Assembly (NCBI RefSeq): GCF_003334255.1 | Contig: NZ_QOWU01000026.1 | Origin: Escherichia coli | GTDB lineage: Bacteria; Pseudomonadota; Gammaproteobacteria; Enterobacterales; Enterobacteriaceae | Strand: one strand, 5' to 3' | Length of the DNA: 63,217 bases | Shown: positions 39,403-52,642 of the stretch, in pieces | How positions within the stretch are numbered: position 1 is the stretch's first letter | Layout: the number at the start of each line of letters is the position of its first letter | The notes under the pieces: model-generated | What the model was told of the DNA's origin: nothing | Databases searched by the model: none | The model's input: only the letters and a program-made list of their open reading frames with translations | Position numbers and translations under genes: made by a program

Positions 39403-39426
39403 ATCCACGCCCTAAAGGACGTGGAT
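39403..39426. promoter_or_regulatory. Hairpin ATCCACG-ccctaaagga-CGTGGAT (copy 1 of a repeated ~30-nt motif)
   Basis: 7-bp perfect stem with 10-nt loop; same loop and inner stem recur at 52601..52642. Confidence 0.4.
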
Positions 39427-39437
39427 TCCCGCTACGT

Positions 39438-39815
39438 TCACTCTGACAATTCGTTGATCAAGTCACGGTATTTATTCAGTTCTTGCAACGCCTTACATGC
39501 ACCCTCCCATCGTTTCTGTTTCCGCCCGGCGCGGCGCGCTTCTTTCCGTGATTTACGTAGCAGGTCACCTATAATGTTGTGCTGAACTGGCTGAACTGGC
39601 TGAACTGGCTGAACTGGCTGAACTGAATCAATATCTGTTTTGCTTCCAACTCCCTCTACTGCCTGCCAGATGCCGTTTTTTACCTTTACGATCCCCTGGT
39701 TTTTCAACTTCCACAGCGTATCAATGACGTCATTCAAATCAATATTGAGACCTTTAGAAATGCTGTCGGCTGTTGCTTTTCCTAATTTGTTCAATTCTGT
39801 GAGTACGGCGTTCAT
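39438..39815 (-). CDS. Hypothetical DNA-binding-like protein with (VQP)n linker
   Basis: 125 aa ORF; internal DSVQPVQPVQPVQPVQ encoded by a 9-bp tandem repeat; basic C-terminus. Confidence 0.5.
   Translation of the reverse strand: MNAVLTELNKLGKATADSISKGLNIDLNDVIDTLWKLKNQGIVKVKNGIWQAVEGVGSKTDIDSVQPVQPVQPVQPVQHNIIGDLLRKSRKEARRAGRKQKRWEGACKALQELNKYRDLINELSE
39583..39626. repeat. 9-bp tandem repeat (CTGAACTGG x ~5), in-frame within CDS
   Basis: gctgaactggctgaactggctgaactggctgaactggctgaactga. Confidence 0.85.
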
Positions 39816-39850
39816 TTTTTTCTCCTGATATTTTAATGTCGGTGGGGGTG

Positions 39851-40063
39851 TTATGCGATTGGTGAGGTGTCAGCTTCTTCTACCAGCTTTTCCAGTTCAT
39901 CCAGCTTTCGGGAAAGAATTTCACCAAACAGATGAAGTTCTGCATCTGCTGTGATCGGGATTGGAACAAAGCGTATTCCACTTCTGGCAAGTTGATTTGC
40001 GATTTCCAGACACTGCCTTAATTCAACTGGTGATGCCTTTGTCAACGTCGTTTTTTCGCTCAT
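39851..40063 (-). CDS. Hypothetical small protein
   Basis: ORF 39851..40147; start taken at MSEKTTLTK with GGAG upstream; overlaps methylase 3' end. Confidence 0.4.
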   Translation of the reverse strand: MSEKTTLTKASPVELRQCLEIANQLARSGIRFVPIPITADAELHLFGEILSRKLDELEKLVEEADTSPIA

Positions 40064-40649
40064 TGGTTTTCTCCAGAAATTTAACAATACCCGGAACCAT
40101 CTCAATGGATGGTGTTCCGCATTGGTTACCCCATACATCAAATCCATGCGAGGTGTGGCGGGCGAACAGTTCTATCCGGGGAACATCGCCAAGAAGTTGC
40201 ACAAGTTTTTCTCGCGCCATATCCGGCTTGCGGGAGTGATCAAGGCGTGGTGCAGTAAATGACTGAATTATTCCGGCGTTAATGCGTTCAGGCAGATTTC
40301 CTTTCACTGCAAAAAGGCAGTCTTCGCTGTTAGCGCGAGTGGTGCTACCCATACCCATGACCAGCTTGTCGGTCTGTCTTTTCCCGCATTTGTTCCAGGT
40401 TAATCCTTTCATCGTCACCAGGCGAAAGCCCCATGCTTCTACAACCTTCAATGCTTCAAGTGGTTGTGTAGGCACCCACCACATAGCCAACAGGCAGTTA
40501 TCTGCTGCCAGTTCCCATACCGGGAGGCGGCAGATATCGAGAAGGCTCATGACCGGATATTTAAAACTTGCACCGCGTTGACCATCGGTTGCTTTGTCGC
40601 GGAATGTCCAAGGTGGATCTGCGTAAATGAGAGTGTATTTGTTAGTCAT
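40023..40649 (-). CDS. MT-A70-family DNA N6-adenine methyltransferase (orphan)
   Basis: 208 aa, MTNKYTLIYADPPWTFRDK... DPPW catalytic motif; no adjacent endonuclease. Confidence 0.8.
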   Translation of the reverse strand: MTNKYTLIYADPPWTFRDKATDGQRGASFKYPVMSLLDICRLPVWELAADNCLLAMWWVPTQPLEALKVVEAWGFRLVTMKGLTWNKCGKRQTDKLVMGMGSTTRANSEDCLFAVKGNLPERINAGIIQSFTAPRLDHSRKPDMAREKLVQLLGDVPRIELFARHTSHGFDVWGNQCGTPSIEMVPGIVKFLEKTNERKNDVDKGITS

Positions 40650-41077
40650 AGCGCCTTTTCAAACTCATCAATGTAAAGTCCTGCTTTAATCAGTCGGCGA
40701 CGGCGTTTGGCCTTTTGCTCGTATTCCTCGCGGCAGTTTTTTGCTGCGTGTTCACGGCTTCTGCGACTGAATGGAGGAACGGCATTGCGTGAACGAGGTG
40801 TGTCACGACGAGGATTTGATTCGAGGGAGAAAAAGCGATCAACGATTCCGGTGTCTGTGGTGAATGACTCTGAAGCCTTGATTTTCACAACCTTACTGCC
40901 TTTTGTCAGGCTGCGAGCTACCTTGTTGAACTCGCAAAGTGAAACACCAAATTTCTCTGCTATTTCACTGCCAGTAACAGGACGACCACGAGACTGAATC
41001 ATCCAGGTGACGCGTTCTTTTAACCCACGGAAGACACCGGGCCTTCCAGAACGCCTGTAGAAAGCGATCTGTTTCAA
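40646..41077 (-). CDS. Hypothetical phage protein, possible HTH DNA-binding
   Basis: 143 aa ORF, basic C-terminus; no family recognised. Confidence 0.4.
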   Translation of the reverse strand: MKQIAFYRRSGRPGVFRGLKERVTWMIQSRGRPVTGSEIAEKFGVSLCEFNKVARSLTKGSKVVKIKASESFTTDTGIVDRFFSLESNPRRDTPRSRNAVPPFSRRSREHAAKNCREEYEQKAKRRRRLIKAGLYIDEFEKAL

Positions 41078-50626: not shown

Positions 50627-50889
50627 TTATGTCCTTGCTGATTTGTTCAGATAACCCTGTGTTCAGCAGGGTGGTCAGGTACTTGAACACCGCAGCAAGT
50701 CGGCCCGTATCCTTAGCCTTACGGCTGTTTTTCGGTATACGCGCTACCCGACCATATCTGAAAAATGGACACAAAAAAACCGCATGACTGACGGGGCGGT
50801 TTCCGCTTGCTGTGGTGTGTTCAGCACCATGAAGCGGAATATATCCCCGTCGATGTGGATTTGTCAAGGTTGCTTTGGCAGAAACATGT

Positions 50890-51441
50890 TTACAGCTTTA
50901 TTCCGCATGCAGTGATAAATTTATTAACAGCACCAGTGGAGCCTAATACATTAAAGTTGAAAGAATATGTCATGGCATCTTCTCGTGTGATGTCTTGGCG
51001 TCGAATCCCGACCCTCACTCTATGTTTAGCATCTCTGAGTTGCCTGAGTATAATTTTAATTTTCTTCATTTCAGTATCAGTACGTTCAGTGATAGCTTGT
51101 GTTAGCATTGAGTTTCTTCTTGAAAGTGTTGCGTTGAGCCTTATTATACTATTTTTGTCAATTTTTATTGCCACATCTATTGGAAATGAATAAATTGGGG
51201 CCGATGTTTCTTCTTCTATGTCCTTTTCGACTAATGAGAATGTTAGGGATCTTGGCGTACAATTAAGAGCAATCATGTGATTATCAATCTCTTCAGGATT
51301 TGATGTTTTTTTTCCTACCATCAGCGCCGTGTGACCATCAGAGAACAAATCGTCGTCTGTTACTGTATACCACTCCGCCTGTACTATTGGTGAAAAAAAA
51401 ATTGTAGTGATAAGAGTTGTCCTGAGTATTTTTCGCATCAT
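50890..51441 (-). CDS. Secreted protein of unknown function (AT-rich moron)
   Basis: 183 aa; signal peptide MMRKILRTTLITTIFFSPIVQA; AT-rich. Confidence 0.5.
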   Translation of the reverse strand: MMRKILRTTLITTIFFSPIVQAEWYTVTDDDLFSDGHTALMVGKKTSNPEEIDNHMIALNCTPRSLTFSLVEKDIEEETSAPIYSFPIDVAIKIDKNSIIRLNATLSRRNSMLTQAITERTDTEMKKIKIILRQLRDAKHRVRVGIRRQDITREDAMTYSFNFNVLGSTGAVNKFITACGIKL

Positions 51442-52123
51442 TAAGTTTCCCGTTCAGTTCGACTGACCACTTCAAAGTGCTTACATAGGCTATTTGATAG
51501 CACTACCTACGCGGCAGTATAAAGAAGTCAGTTGAAAACTTGAACGTTGTGTTGAAAACATAACTTTGTGCGGCATAGGTAATCGTAGAATGATTGTGAT
51601 TGGTCTTATGGTATCCAATCATTACTTTTGCTATAGGTTTTGGACGGAATCGGTATTTCATGTAACGCTTTGGCGGTGCTGCCTGCACCCCAAAACATTC
51701 CCTGTATTGGTCAGCGCCAACTTCCTGCCAGTGTTGCCCGTTCTCACGCCGTTCTCGCTCTCGCGCGGGGATACTCTCTCATCGACCGGATCGCACCCGA
51801 TGATACAGCACGTTTACGTGTAGGGGTCTAAACAGGTCATTGACGCTGTAAAGCTCCAGATTGTTAAAGAGCATTTTGCGGCGGGTTAAGTCGCGCCGTA
51901 CGACTGATTTATGTAGCCCTGTGTAAGGGCGCGATGTTTCTGGCTTGAAATAAATATAACTTGCGGTGATTTTTGTGTAAATACCGTTGGTGGTTATCGT
52001 GGGCAAAAAAATATTACTTAACTGATTTTTAAAGTGATTTATTTTTGAAGGGGACAGATAGCAGGAGGGGATATGCAAAGAAAAACCCGGCGCATGGGCC
52101 GGGCTATTTATCTGGTCCTGTAC

Positions 52124-52426
52124 TCATTCAGTAGAGTAGGGGCCAAGAAATCGCACTCCGTTGAAGTGAATAAGATGAGAAGGTGCATCAGCCACCCATA
52201 CCTCTGTTTCCCATGCGATTTCACCAAGATATCGTCCCATGATGGAGCGATTTGGAAAAGCGGTCACATAGACAAGTCCGGCTGTTGATCCGGCAAACAG
52301 CCTGGCAAGCTCAGCATGCCGCTTCCCATCAACCGGTCCATGACTGGTGACAGACTCAACCAGTAGCAGCCAGTTTTTCGCAGTAAAATGTAGCACCACA
52401 TCTGGCATTTTACCGTGTGAATCCAC
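52124..52426 (-). pseudogene. Short ORF downstream of cI, possibly C-terminal remnant of a restriction-endonuclease-like gene
   Basis: 100 codons; frame open upstream only to a stop at 52451..52453; ..NWLLLVESVTSHGPVDGKRHAEL.. resembles, from memory, the C-terminus of BsuBI/PstI-type enzymes (unverified). Confidence 0.35.
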
Positions 52427-52600
52427 ATCAACACCTAGCCTAGGCCCTGGCTAAGGCTTTGGTAGTTCAAACATGATGCACAGCCTGAATGACAACACCT
52501 GAAGCCAGTGGTTGAATGGCAAATTGCACACAAAAACAGTTAACAGGCTAATTATTGAGATTCTAAGTATCTAGCTACCCCTCTCACCCCCCTTGATGGC

Positions 52601-52642
52601 TTTGACATCCTCCACGCCCCAAAGGACGTGAAGGATGTCAAA
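52601..52642. promoter_or_regulatory. Hairpin TTTGACATCCTCCACG-ccccaaagga-CGTGAAGGATGTCAAA (copy 2 of repeated motif), immediately downstream of cI
   Basis: 16-bp stem with one mismatch; core shared with 39403..39426. Confidence 0.4.

Follow-up and report, generated by a model that had tools for sequence, protein, structure and literature searches.

The locus raises the question of why a hairpin-containing motif of about 30 nt occurs twice in one stretch of Escherichia coli DNA, and whether the two copies serve as a shared signal. The window, i.e., the whole stretch of 63,217 nt that was analyzed, contains copy 1 (tgaTATCATCCACGCCCTAAAGGACGTGGA, 39396-39425; site S1) and copy 2 (tgaCATCCTCCACGCCCCAAAGGACGTGAA, 52603-52632; site S2). 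The two are identical at 26 of 30 positions (87%), as the first-pass annotation had reported; its position for copy 1 stands, whereas its start for copy 2 was about 5 nt too low. A degenerate 26-mer of the motif, searched with up to three mismatches on both strands of the 63 kb, matched these two copies alone and had no match in 100 dinucleotide-preserving shuffles. Each copy lies just 3' of a minus-strand gene, copy 1 after the (VQP)n/DUF1627 open reading frame (ORF) and copy 2 after cI, in agreement with the earlier description. RNA folding of both loci also bore out the proposed hairpin, which is stabler on the minus strand (copy 1, -20.6 kcal/mol with z -3.0 vs -13.8 on the plus strand; copy 2, -34.4 kcal/mol with z -7.1 vs -25.3). 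The minus-strand stem of copy 2 has 19 bp, including two G.U pairs, and a UUUG loop. The motif is a homologous, hairpin-forming element of the leftward (minus) strand.

Neither S1 nor S2 is likely to be an intrinsic terminator, and the proposal of a shared terminator was not borne out. The tails after the hairpins, GAUAUCAGGC (S1) and AGCCAUCAAG (S2), contain no T/U run such as a rho-independent terminator has, and the terminator scan was silent at both sites, with nothing terminator-like at 39100-39900 or at S2. The window's terminator-like site is at 52105..52084, within a restriction endonuclease remnant, and is likely the true end of the cI-distal leftward transcription unit. A search of Rfam gave no gathering-level match at S1 or S2, the best sub-threshold match being HgcC (26.7 bits vs a threshold of 50). 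A processing or stabilizing role of the predicted RNA hairpin is possible. At most, the present action of the two copies would be that of a stable RNA hairpin in leftward transcripts.

S1 and S2 are most probably stranded right ends of an IS200/IS605-family, IS605-type insertion sequence (IS), a reading to which we assign a probability of roughly 85% from sequence comparison. In the IS605 type, tnpA (a Y1 HUH transposase) is divergent from tnpB/insQ (an RNA-guided nuclease). A "putative virulence protein" of Morganella phage IME1369_01 is TnpB (NF040570, 383.9 bits), and its neighbor is an IS200/IS605 transposase (NF033573, 142.4 bits). The intact IS of ~1.75 kb, with tnpA and tnpB, is present on four IMG/VR contigs, on E. 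coli chromosomes and plasmids (where it is annotated as InsQ/TnpB and IS200/IS605 TnpA), in Citrobacter, and in the Morganella phage, and the same right end lies at the extreme edge of a Proteus scaffold. Its boundaries, set from five insertions with different flanks, are /TTGACATCCT-hairpin ... hairpin-TTTTACGGCGC(5)G/ATAA (slashes mark the boundaries). TTAT precedes all intact copies on the top strand, and the active top strand of the IS corresponds to the minus strand of the window. The intact right-end hairpin is a 9-bp imperfect palindrome, CCACGTCC-TTyA-GGGCGTGG, which TnpA would bind as single-stranded DNA; it is followed by a 10-nt linker, AGGATGTCAA, whose final four bases (TCAA) are the putative cleavage site. 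In IS608, cleavage occurs 19 nt 5' of the left-end hairpin and at TCAA 10 nt 3' of the right-end hairpin (PMC3201880), and TTAT/TCAA are the commonest cleavage sites of TnpB-containing elements (PMC9956272). The end geometry of the intact IS matches both, which supports the right-end identity.

A covariance model was built from seven intact-IS right ends only, with S1 and S2 excluded. It scored 57 bits at S1 (E=3e-14, full length over all 50 positions, 39395-39444, minus strand) and 33.3 bits at S2 (E=1.3e-7, model positions 20-50, minus strand 52602-52632), with 20.9 bits on the S2 plus strand (52611-52641); the next best match in the rest of the window reached 8.9 bits. By this model, both sites have a subterminal imperfect palindrome homologous to that of intact members. 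The boundary lies ~10 nt 3' of the hairpin foot, with the tetranucleotide TCAG at S1. The positions that pair as T.G/U.G on the minus strand are C.A mismatches on the plus strand, and this full pairing on the minus strand only fits the top-strand asymmetry expected of the IS200/IS605 family. The earlier suggestion of a protein-binding element thus survives in kind, in that the motif would originally have been the site at which TnpA binds an IS200/IS605 element. Similarity by chance, or a constraint imposed by a short plus-strand ORF that ends in ...SSTP*, is effectively refuted by the shuffles, by the model E-values (3e-14 and 1e-7), and by the motif's upstream flanks, which differ in every intact-IS insertion and leave no conserved ORF. 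The plus strand can be read as (L/I)(T/S)SSTP-stop, the motif of the Morganella phage closes a 39-codon CxxC..CxxC ORF, and some database matches to the 17-nt core are clearly due to chance (high-GC coding regions and a CRISPR repeat in L047), but the plus-strand frames of the window extend only 11-12 codons from the nearest ATG.

The features at and around S1 are as follows.
39395..39437, minus strand: S1, a probable solo IS605-type right-end relic of 43 nt (covariance model, identity, breakpoints).
39404..39425, minus strand: S1 hairpin, with a 10-bp stem including one G.U pair and a UUUA loop (fold).
39385..39394, minus strand: flank immediately 3' of the S1 right-end terminus, top strand GCTGTTGAAA... 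(relatives AU5Stx1 and SH2026Stx1).
39438..39815, minus strand: (VQP)n/DUF1627 ORF, whose product contains SVQPVQPVQPVQPVQ (DUF1627 annotation in relatives).
39177..39359, minus strand: xis (excisionase), downstream of S1 on the leftward strand (annotation of relatives).

S1 preserves the end of the IS and an empty site for it is found in relatives. Its minus (top) strand reads ACGTAGCGGGAAT-CCACGTCCTTTAGGGCGTGG-ATGATATCAG, i.e., a 13-nt internal segment, a TnpA-type hairpin, and a 10-nt linker that differs from intact copies at 3 of 10 bases and ends in TCAG where those have TCAA. Ungapped identity to intact right ends ranges from 41/46 to 44/51, BLAST identity to the Morganella-phage IS is 94.6% over 37 nt, and the 20-nt core of the hairpin is identical to the intact IS in L031. 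Homology to relatives breaks at both edges. The left edge, exactly 10 nt from the hairpin foot, is the breakpoint against AU5Stx1 and SH2026Stx1, whose top strand runs ...GGTTTATTAT/GCTGTTGAAA with TTAT directly 5' of the junction, where the right end of S1 would sit, and which have no match to the right-end covariance model. The empty site TTAT/GCTGTTG of these two phages lies exactly where the S1 terminus abuts GCTGTTG, as in insertion 3' of a target tetranucleotide without duplication. By this comparison, 39385..39394 appears to be the original insertion flank; it leads into the ribosome-binding site and start codon of xis, 35 nt downstream of copy 1. The right edge is the start of the 3' end of DUF1627 in its native form, which P13803 and AU5Stx1 also have (TCACTCTGACAATT), and abuts the DUF1627 stop codon (39438-39440), which occupies the position of the tnpB stop codon in the intact IS, where the sequence is ACGT-TCA-GGCTG.

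The order of events at S1 can be inferred from these junctions. The IS would have inserted 3' of the TTAT target just upstream of xis, and a deletion at the TCA microhomology that the stop codons of tnpB and DUF1627 share would then have removed the IS body together with ~650 bp of phage DNA carrying two small genes, leaving the last 43 nt of the IS with the body deleted back to the DUF1627 stop codon. The intermediate state is itself inferred, since no phage was found in which an intact IS still separates TTAT from xis. Haloquadratum provides documented cases of IS605 derivatives that lost their core by deletion and consist of the termini only (PMC3119063). In 104 phage records, the S1 sequence shows 100% identity, which is uninformative on selection because those phages are ~98-99% identical across the whole region. 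Just beyond the relic, an 8-mer (TCACTCTG) that is native DUF1627 sequence at S1 is common to S1 and S2 and absent from the IS, reflecting either chance (~0.3%) or exchange between the two loci.

At S2, four features are needed.
52602..52641, no strand assigned: S2, a probable palindromised solo right end of 40 nt, TTGACATCCT-CCACGCCCCAAAGGACGTGA-AGGATGTCAA (model, identity, fold).
52656..53369, minus strand: cI repressor gene (LexA/S24-like C-terminal half, HTH N-terminal half).
52441..52600, no strand assigned: 160-nt segment bounded on its right by the S2 palindrome base (comparison with relatives).
52084..52440, minus strand: 3'-end remnant of a BsuBI-like restriction endonuclease gene (99.4% identical to L083 1-357).

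S2 consists of a right-end hairpin between two copies of its own linker. Both arms are the 10-nt right-end linker and, together with a neighboring T and A, make up the 19-bp minus-strand stem; over the left 29 nt, S2 agrees with intact right ends at 27-28 of 29 positions. TCAA lies 10 nt from the hairpin foot at the mosaic breakpoint 52601/52602, and 13 nt separate the cI stop codon from the end of the palindrome at 52642. Replacement of the hairpin's internal side by an inverted linker copy would have produced this 40-nt palindrome 3' of cI, at whose base different cargo modules begin in different phages. The 160-nt segment, present only in the window, PhiR12_3, and close relatives, replaces ~2.1 kb of the Oslovirus-type BsuBI-like methylase/restriction module. 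The original insertion orientation at S2 is ambiguous because the palindrome presents a right-end-like end on both strands. Oslovirus-type phages have a flipped, degenerate center at S2 (in L094, the plus strand scores 24.3 bits vs 14.2 for the minus strand).

Could such ends still be addressed by a transposase? A resident IS would supply TnpA in trans to cleave the top strand at the solo termini, making them recombination hotspots or non-autonomous parts, similar to PATEs, that drive cargo exchange at module borders. Three cargos (the BsuBI-like restriction-modification pair, the 160-nt segment, and a 341-aa gene) begin within 1-2 nt of the S2 terminus, homology breaks at both S1 edges, two unrelated contexts have palindromised arms that extend exactly to the cleavage position, some E. 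coli genomes carry intact tnpA copies of the IS, and Haloquadratum has a 52-bp terminal-only element that seems to be mobile (PMC3119063). However, excision in the family requires both a left and a right end (PMC3201880) and the window has no left end, the S1 cleavage tetranucleotide is mutated to TCAG, replication slippage predicts deletion endpoints at palindrome bases without any transposase, and matches of any kind to the IS are confined to 144 of 5426 complete E. coli genomes. We regard continued cleavage as unlikely. A regex search of the window found no left-end-type hairpin or TTTTACGGC flank, the covariance model gave no further matches, and tblastn with TnpA and TnpB returned nothing below E=5. 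Neither copy can transpose, since left end, tnpA, and tnpB are all missing from the window, and as stranded right ends, S1 and S2 are immobile fossils.

A present regulatory use, whatever the origin, has somewhat more in its favor and is possible, albeit not the reading that we prefer. S2, and perhaps S1, would have been kept as an exapted RNA hairpin for the fate of minus-strand mRNA, with the S2 RNA, situated between cI and the downstream genes, blocking 3'-exonucleases or serving as an RNase III substrate and so uncoupling their expression, and S1 modulating read-through into xis. The S2 stem, a perfect one of 19 bp, lies on the cI-sense strand with the folding energy and z-score given above. 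The window and the Oslovirus phages have identical outer arms around an 11-nt center that differs at most positions, indicating that the stem has been retained in ~100 phages. In about as many relatives, the cI-proximal hairpin is followed by a co-oriented methylase-restriction gene pair. This places S2 between cI and co-oriented genes, like intercistronic REP hairpins. The exact S1 spot is taken in AU5Stx1-type phages by a GC-rich UUCG hairpin and, after it, UUUAUUAU. Against this, there are no compensatory substitutions, the arms of the diverged cI lineage L015 carry two unpaired changes, the flip explains the center difference better than selection does, the U-tract is missing and the terminator scan silent, and the 40-nt palindrome also occurs in non-phage contexts, so its shape needs no cI-specific selection.

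Guide-RNA function is very improbable at either site. The right-end remnant would be transcribed as the 3' part of an omega-RNA-like scaffold, and the adjacent flank (the xis leader at S1) would guide TnpB or TldR supplied in trans. On the top strand, S1 and the intact IS both have sub-threshold Rfam matches to sot0042 (RF02656, an RNA of the "sense overlapping transcript" kind) and HgcC, but far under gathering thresholds. The scaffold of a TnpB omega-RNA spans the right end with the guide as the flank just beyond, yet such scaffolds measure roughly 95-100 nt (PMC10705468), whereas IS homology ends 43-50 nt from the terminus. A ~100-nt scaffold and a cognate TnpB would be needed, and the window has no tnpB homology; at S2, a palindrome arm replaces the scaffold side.

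The palindromised form itself may be a recurrent product. The identical 40-nt palindrome is found in unrelated contexts, including the Parasutterella chromosome and an unrelated metagenome contig, in which both flanks differ and the arms stop at the cleavage position. In the E. coli phage, it is near-perfect, a single position being mismatched (C.A) on the plus strand and paired as G.U on the minus strand. Its center can flip. It is a tentative and rather doubtful proposal that IS605-type elements give rise to TTGACATCCT-hairpin-AGGATGTCAA specifically and repeatedly, and not just once by decay, or even that it is a mobile mini-element. In Stx-type phages, it would have become fixed just 3' of cI, marking the exchange point of defense/cargo modules, where it may set the fate of cI mRNA.

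Comparison with known systems places S1 and S2 closest to ends of the IS605 group (paradigm IS608). They share its subterminal imperfect-palindrome hairpin, its 10-nt linker to the boundary (TCAA), its insertion 3' of TTAT without target duplication, and full pairing on the top strand only; unlike it, they are right ends only, lacking the left end, tnpA, and tnpB, with TCAG at S1 and an inverted linker copy as the internal flank of S2. PATEs of Haloquadratum walsbyi (PMC3119063) are likewise transposase-free IS605-type leftovers around a near-terminal palindrome that arose by core deletion, but PATEs and the 46-nt element of 933W/HK97 keep both termini where S1 and S2 keep one, and we found no sign that S1 or S2 is mobile. 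REP elements are also extragenic hairpins related to substrates of IS200-like tyrosine transposases (RAYT, Y1 HUH) and lie between or after genes, where upstream mRNA can be stabilized; they belong to a different sequence family, with hundreds of copies rather than two, and no RAYT is associated with S1 or S2. In the TnpB omega-RNA (reRNA), the right-end hairpin and linker form the scaffold 3' end, with the guide placed in the flank past the terminus; S1 and S2 amount to under half a scaffold in a prophage without TnpB. Lambda t_imm and sib occupy comparable positions, 3' of the repressor operon and next to xis/int, and likewise form hairpins in leftward RNA, but S1 and S2 have no U-tract and a different evolutionary origin, and their RNase III cleavage is putative.

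The motif is not a phage-designed signal but fragments at two module boundaries of a Shiga-toxin-type prophage. The copies do bracket the leftward early region geometrically, as had been proposed, but not as a paired functional device; they are best explained as independent relics at module junctions. Other relics of the IS are common in lambdoid phages; 933W and HK97, for instance, carry a 46-nt element of fused ends. For the immunity and excision regions of Shiga-toxin-type phages, a concrete, checkable origin takes the place of a speculative "shared regulatory signal", and two mosaic breakpoints, the int-xis/early-left junction and the cI/"rex-position" cargo junction, are explained to the nucleotide. 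IS605-type ends are common lambdoid landmarks (the window, 933W, HK97, upstream of stx1, and P1) and are unannotated in all phage records inspected; shape alone is insufficient for calling such hairpins terminators. The feature is ordinary in kind, with a neat history, and the palindromised form with cargo exchange at its base offers a small lead on how single-strand transposon ends may shape phage modules.

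The window is a lambdoid prophage of the short-tailed Stx type (Sepvirinae). Its int-xis end matches many Stx phages at ~99%; for its cI-cro region the figures are ~97% with Oslovirus-type phages and 99.9%, across the whole stretch tested, with phage PhiR12_3. The repeated motif of ~30 nt described in the first-pass annotation was recovered as quoted, with the two 30-mers at 39396-39425 and 52603-52632 identical at 26/30 positions. A degenerate 26-mer (up to 3 mismatches) matched these two sites alone, with 0 matches in 100 shuffles. The two copies are situated as follows.

39395-39437, minus strand: S1, the first copy, adjoining the stop codon of the ORF at 39438-39815 (minus strand) and 35 nt upstream of xis
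52602-52641: S2, the second copy, a 40-nt palindrome whose end is 13 nt from the cI stop codon (cI at 52656-53369, minus strand)

The ORF beside S1 encodes a protein that includes SVQPVQPVQPVQPVQ, and its RefSeq relatives are annotated DUF1627. It has 125 aa in the window (39438-39815) and 119 aa in PhiR12_3 (1600-1959), and alignments to other phages differ in 9-nt steps; these length differences would fit a variable number of (VQP)n repeat units. For both S1 and S2 the more stable fold is that of the minus strand, on which two T.G/U.G positions are paired. The values are -20.6 (minus) versus -13.8 kcal/mol (plus) for S1, and -34.4 (minus; 19-bp stem, z -7.1) versus -25.3 kcal/mol (plus) for S2.

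The motif belongs to an insertion sequence (IS) that is intact elsewhere. Scanning IMG/VR for 17 specified core bases returned 73 loci, which include some chance matches (high-GC coding sequence, one CRISPR repeat) and two informative groups. In the first group, the core lies within TTATAT...TTTTACGGCAC...GATAAA and adjoins ORFs with the HVHLVFVTKYR motif and TnpB-like ORFs. The second includes Morganella phage IME1369_01, found earlier by phage BLAST, in which the motif adjoins the stop codon of a gene whose 402-aa product, annotated "putative virulence protein", is TnpB (NF040570, 383.9 bits). The gene next to it, in divergent orientation, encodes an IS200/IS605 transposase (NF033573, 142.4 bits). 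A DGR-type target hairpin, an idea drawn from the position after a stop codon, was given up once TnpB and TnpA had been identified. The CRISPR-repeat match and several high-GC coding matches were set aside as coincidental, the pattern being 17 nt long and the database very large. The former (L047, 5956-6122) is a CRISPR-like array of three repeats with a 74-nt period, and its repeat holds the same 8-bp stem as the IS hairpin (CCACGCCC-CGAA-GGACGTGG), probably by coincidence.

Alignment of five insertions, all with different flanks, delimited an element of ~1.75 kb. In the window's plus orientation (a slash marks the element boundary), its right end (RE) reads /TTGACATCCT-CCACGCCCTrAAGGACGTGG-ATyCCTrCTrCGT-TCA (tnpB stop), followed by tnpB (minus) and tnpA (plus), and its left end (LE) reads ...GCGCCTTATAT-CCCCGmCCTGAAGGAyGGGG-TTTTACGGCGC(5)G/ATAA. 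On the top strand, the window's minus strand, this gives TTAT/16 nt-hairpin at the left and hairpin-AGGATGTCAA/ at the right. The architecture matches that of IS608, whose left hairpin has a cleavage site 19 nt to its 5' side and whose right hairpin has TCAA 10 nt to its 3' side (PMC3201880); TTAT and TCAA are the commonest cleavage sites of TnpB-containing elements (PMC9956272). A small plus-strand ORF ending in SSTP* was rejected as the source of the motif, as the upstream flank differs in every intact insertion. The same IS also occurs in E. coli chromosomes and plasmids and in Citrobacter, and the edge of a Proteus mirabilis scaffold has the same right end.

Left ends of a related IS (TTATAT-hairpin-TTTTACGGCAC...GATAAA) often lie ~20 nt or less from the ends of predicted-prophage contigs (L011, L021, L022, L034, L041, L042 and L053), and in two loci (L018, L029) one lies ~130 nt from a tRNA gene. 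An att or tRNA-linked site was considered and rejected, since these "family D" copies near tRNAs and prophage-contig ends are related-IS left ends beside tnpA/tnpB. Such repeats may break assemblies or mislead prophage boundary calls.

The whole window was searched, filters off, with a covariance model derived solely from seven right ends of the intact IS. S1 scored 57 bits (E=3e-14) over all 50 model positions (39395-39444, minus strand). For S2, the minus strand (52602-52632) aligned to positions 20-50 with 33.3 bits (E=1.3e-7) and the plus strand scored 20.9 bits; the next match in the window reached 8.9 bits. In BLAST to the intact IS, S1 aligned over 37 nt at 94.6% and S2 over 29 nt at 96.6%. 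Pattern and covariance-model searches of the window found no left-end hairpin, and homology search found no tnpA or tnpB, so S1 and S2 are solo right ends. A composite transposon carrying the 13-kb early-left region, or cI itself, was rejected, as no LE partner was found. We consider an IS605-type right-end relic the best explanation for the origin of both copies, with a probability of roughly 85%. Of the first-pass reading, the hairpin with a protein-binding origin holds, and the terminator does not.

Comparison with related phages resolves the history of S1 at the nucleotide level. In a BLAST search with 39180-39640, some relatives matched over the entire query, the SH2026Stx1 match stopped at 39400, many others (including P13803, TL-2011c and Ss-VASD) matched only from 39435 on, and AU5Stx1 matched as two separate pieces with extra DNA in between, including two additional small genes (DUF4222 and a hypothetical one) between DUF1627 and xis. 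The xis-side flank ...GCTGTTGAAA(A/T)ACATG... is common to the window, AU5Stx1 and SH2026Stx1; on the top strand it is preceded by ...CGGGCGGTTTATTAT in the two phages and by ...GGGCGTGGATGATATCAG in the window. This breakpoint is unambiguous: the foot of the hairpin is exactly 10 nt away, and TTAT stands directly 5' of it in the empty site, as expected for an IS200/IS605-family insertion. At its other edge the relic gives way to the native 3' end of DUF1627 (TCACTCTGACAATT, found also in P13803 and AU5Stx1). Here the intact IS reads ACGT-TCA-GGCTG, which places the joint within the TCA microhomology of two stop codons. We infer that an IS inserted 3' of TTAT, upstream of xis, and that a later deletion of ~2.4 kb, reaching from the stop of tnpB back to that of DUF1627, would have left 43 nt of it (39395-39437). 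AU5Stx1 and P13803 gave no match to the RE model. The proposed intermediate would have the intact IS between ...GGTTTATTAT and GCTGTTGAAA, and no Stx phage in the phage collection carries the intact IS upstream of xis. AU5Stx1 has a promoter-like site, CTAACA-17-TATTAT (L082 1016-1044, minus strand), just upstream of xis, in sequence that the proposed insertion would have destroyed; the site is absent from the window. A hairpin upstream of xis in AU5Stx1 looks terminator-like by eye and was not called by the scan, because just 4 T were counted among the 8 nt that follow its maximal stem; it is therefore not relied on as a terminator.

S2 has a different structure. Its left 29 nt agree with intact right ends at 27-28/29 positions, and its internal flank is AAGGATGTCAAA instead of the GATTCCTGCTACGT of the IS. 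AAGGATGTCAAA is the inverted complement of the terminal linker, hence the 40-nt palindrome. Oslovirus-type homology resumes at 52601, the palindrome base, to the left of which those phages carry a BsuBI-like methylase and endonuclease pair (an R-M module). The window differs there as follows.

52084-52440: last 357 nt of the endonuclease gene, the only part kept in the window
52441-52600: 160 unique nt, in place of ~2.1 kb of the Oslovirus-type R-M module

The PhiR12_3 ORF annotated "type II restriction enzyme BsuBI" (window 52124-52426) is just this 3' remnant of the endonuclease gene. In L015, a diverged cI lineage, a 341-aa gene occupies the cargo position; thus three cargos (R-M pair, 160-nt segment, 341-aa gene) start within 1-2 nt of the RE terminus. 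The Oslovirus-type counterpart, S2', has arms identical to those of S2 and a different 11-nt centre, which agrees with the IS core at 17/20 positions when flipped versus 13/20 unflipped (manual count). The RE model there favours the plus strand (24.3 versus 14.2 bits), so the original S2 insertion could have had either orientation. An 8-mer, TCACTCTG, lies beyond both copies at unequal spacing (39443-39450 and 52643-52650). Beside S1 this 8-mer is the native 3' terminus of DUF1627, where the intact IS has TCAGrCTG; the two loci could share it by chance (roughly 0.3%, an estimate) or through past exchange.

The palindromised form recurs in non-phage contexts (L085, L088, L090 and L092, each a perfect 40 nt with no transposase nearby). 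These include the Parasutterella muris chromosome (L085 ~9174-9213, NZ_WSRP01000033), where it adjoins a response-regulator gene fragment without its N-terminus, and an unrelated metagenome contig; the arms stop precisely at the cleavage position. This recurrence could stem from a quasi-palindrome template switch or from the collapse of two divergent copies.

Another derivative of the same IS, absent from the window, is a 46-nt single-hairpin element, /TTGACATCCT-CCACGCCCTGAAGGACGGGG-TTTTACGGCGCACCGG/ATAA, that joins the RE terminus, a hybrid hairpin and the LE terminus, with the TTAT target flanking. The full 46 nt were read in two phages only.

L095 ~1491-1544: phage 933W (AF125520 ~57866-57919)
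L096 ~1491-1544: phage HK97, between tfa and sib/att

Further matches are in HK106, VT2-Sakai, Min27, BP-4795 and the short H-19B and 933J stx1-locus entries (M16625, M19473; no annotated features), where the element is near the record start. BLAST with its left-end half matched 109 phage records (95-99% identity). The element resembles both a solo LTR and the "terminal-only" PATEs of Haloquadratum, a related phenomenon produced by repeat-mediated core deletion (PMC3119063).

An intrinsic terminator was rejected at both S1 and S2, since no U-tract follows the stem and the terminator scan was negative. The leftward strand has a terminator-like site at 52105..52084, beyond the endonuclease remnant. 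Relatives have the R-M genes between S2' and this site, co-oriented with cI, which makes a strong terminator at S2' unlikely. The very stable minus-strand RNA stem predicted for S2 could serve as a 3'-exonuclease barrier or an RNase III substrate, and S1 is probably neutral now. S1 is invariant in 104 near-identical phages and the L015 palindrome arms carry unpaired changes, so there is no covariation informative on an RNA role. An omega-RNA role is unlikely because 43-50 nt survive of scaffolds that measure ~95-100 nt (PMC10705468), and TnpB is lacking. Rfam at gathering thresholds gave no match at S1 or S2, and permissive searches gave weak matches only (HgcC, sot0042 and miRNA-like models). 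The gathering-level matches in the window lie elsewhere.

37757-37828, minus strand: tRNA beside int, likely the att region
41860-42049, minus strand: C4 antisense RNA and isrK (P1/P7-type antirepressor control module)
50665-50753, minus strand: sRNA-Xcc1, also found in three unrelated IMG/VR loci
58719-58893, plus strand: sok antitoxin (hok/sok)
62696-62912, plus strand: STnc100

None of the inspected records annotates these IS relics, either the solo ends or the fused 46-nt element. We found no paper describing them in Stx phages, and nothing specific on IS609 or on a terminator 3' of cI in 933W. S1 and S2 are of a kind already known, solo ends of a known transposon family; the new details are the members themselves, their nucleotide-level reconstruction and the recurrent palindromised form.
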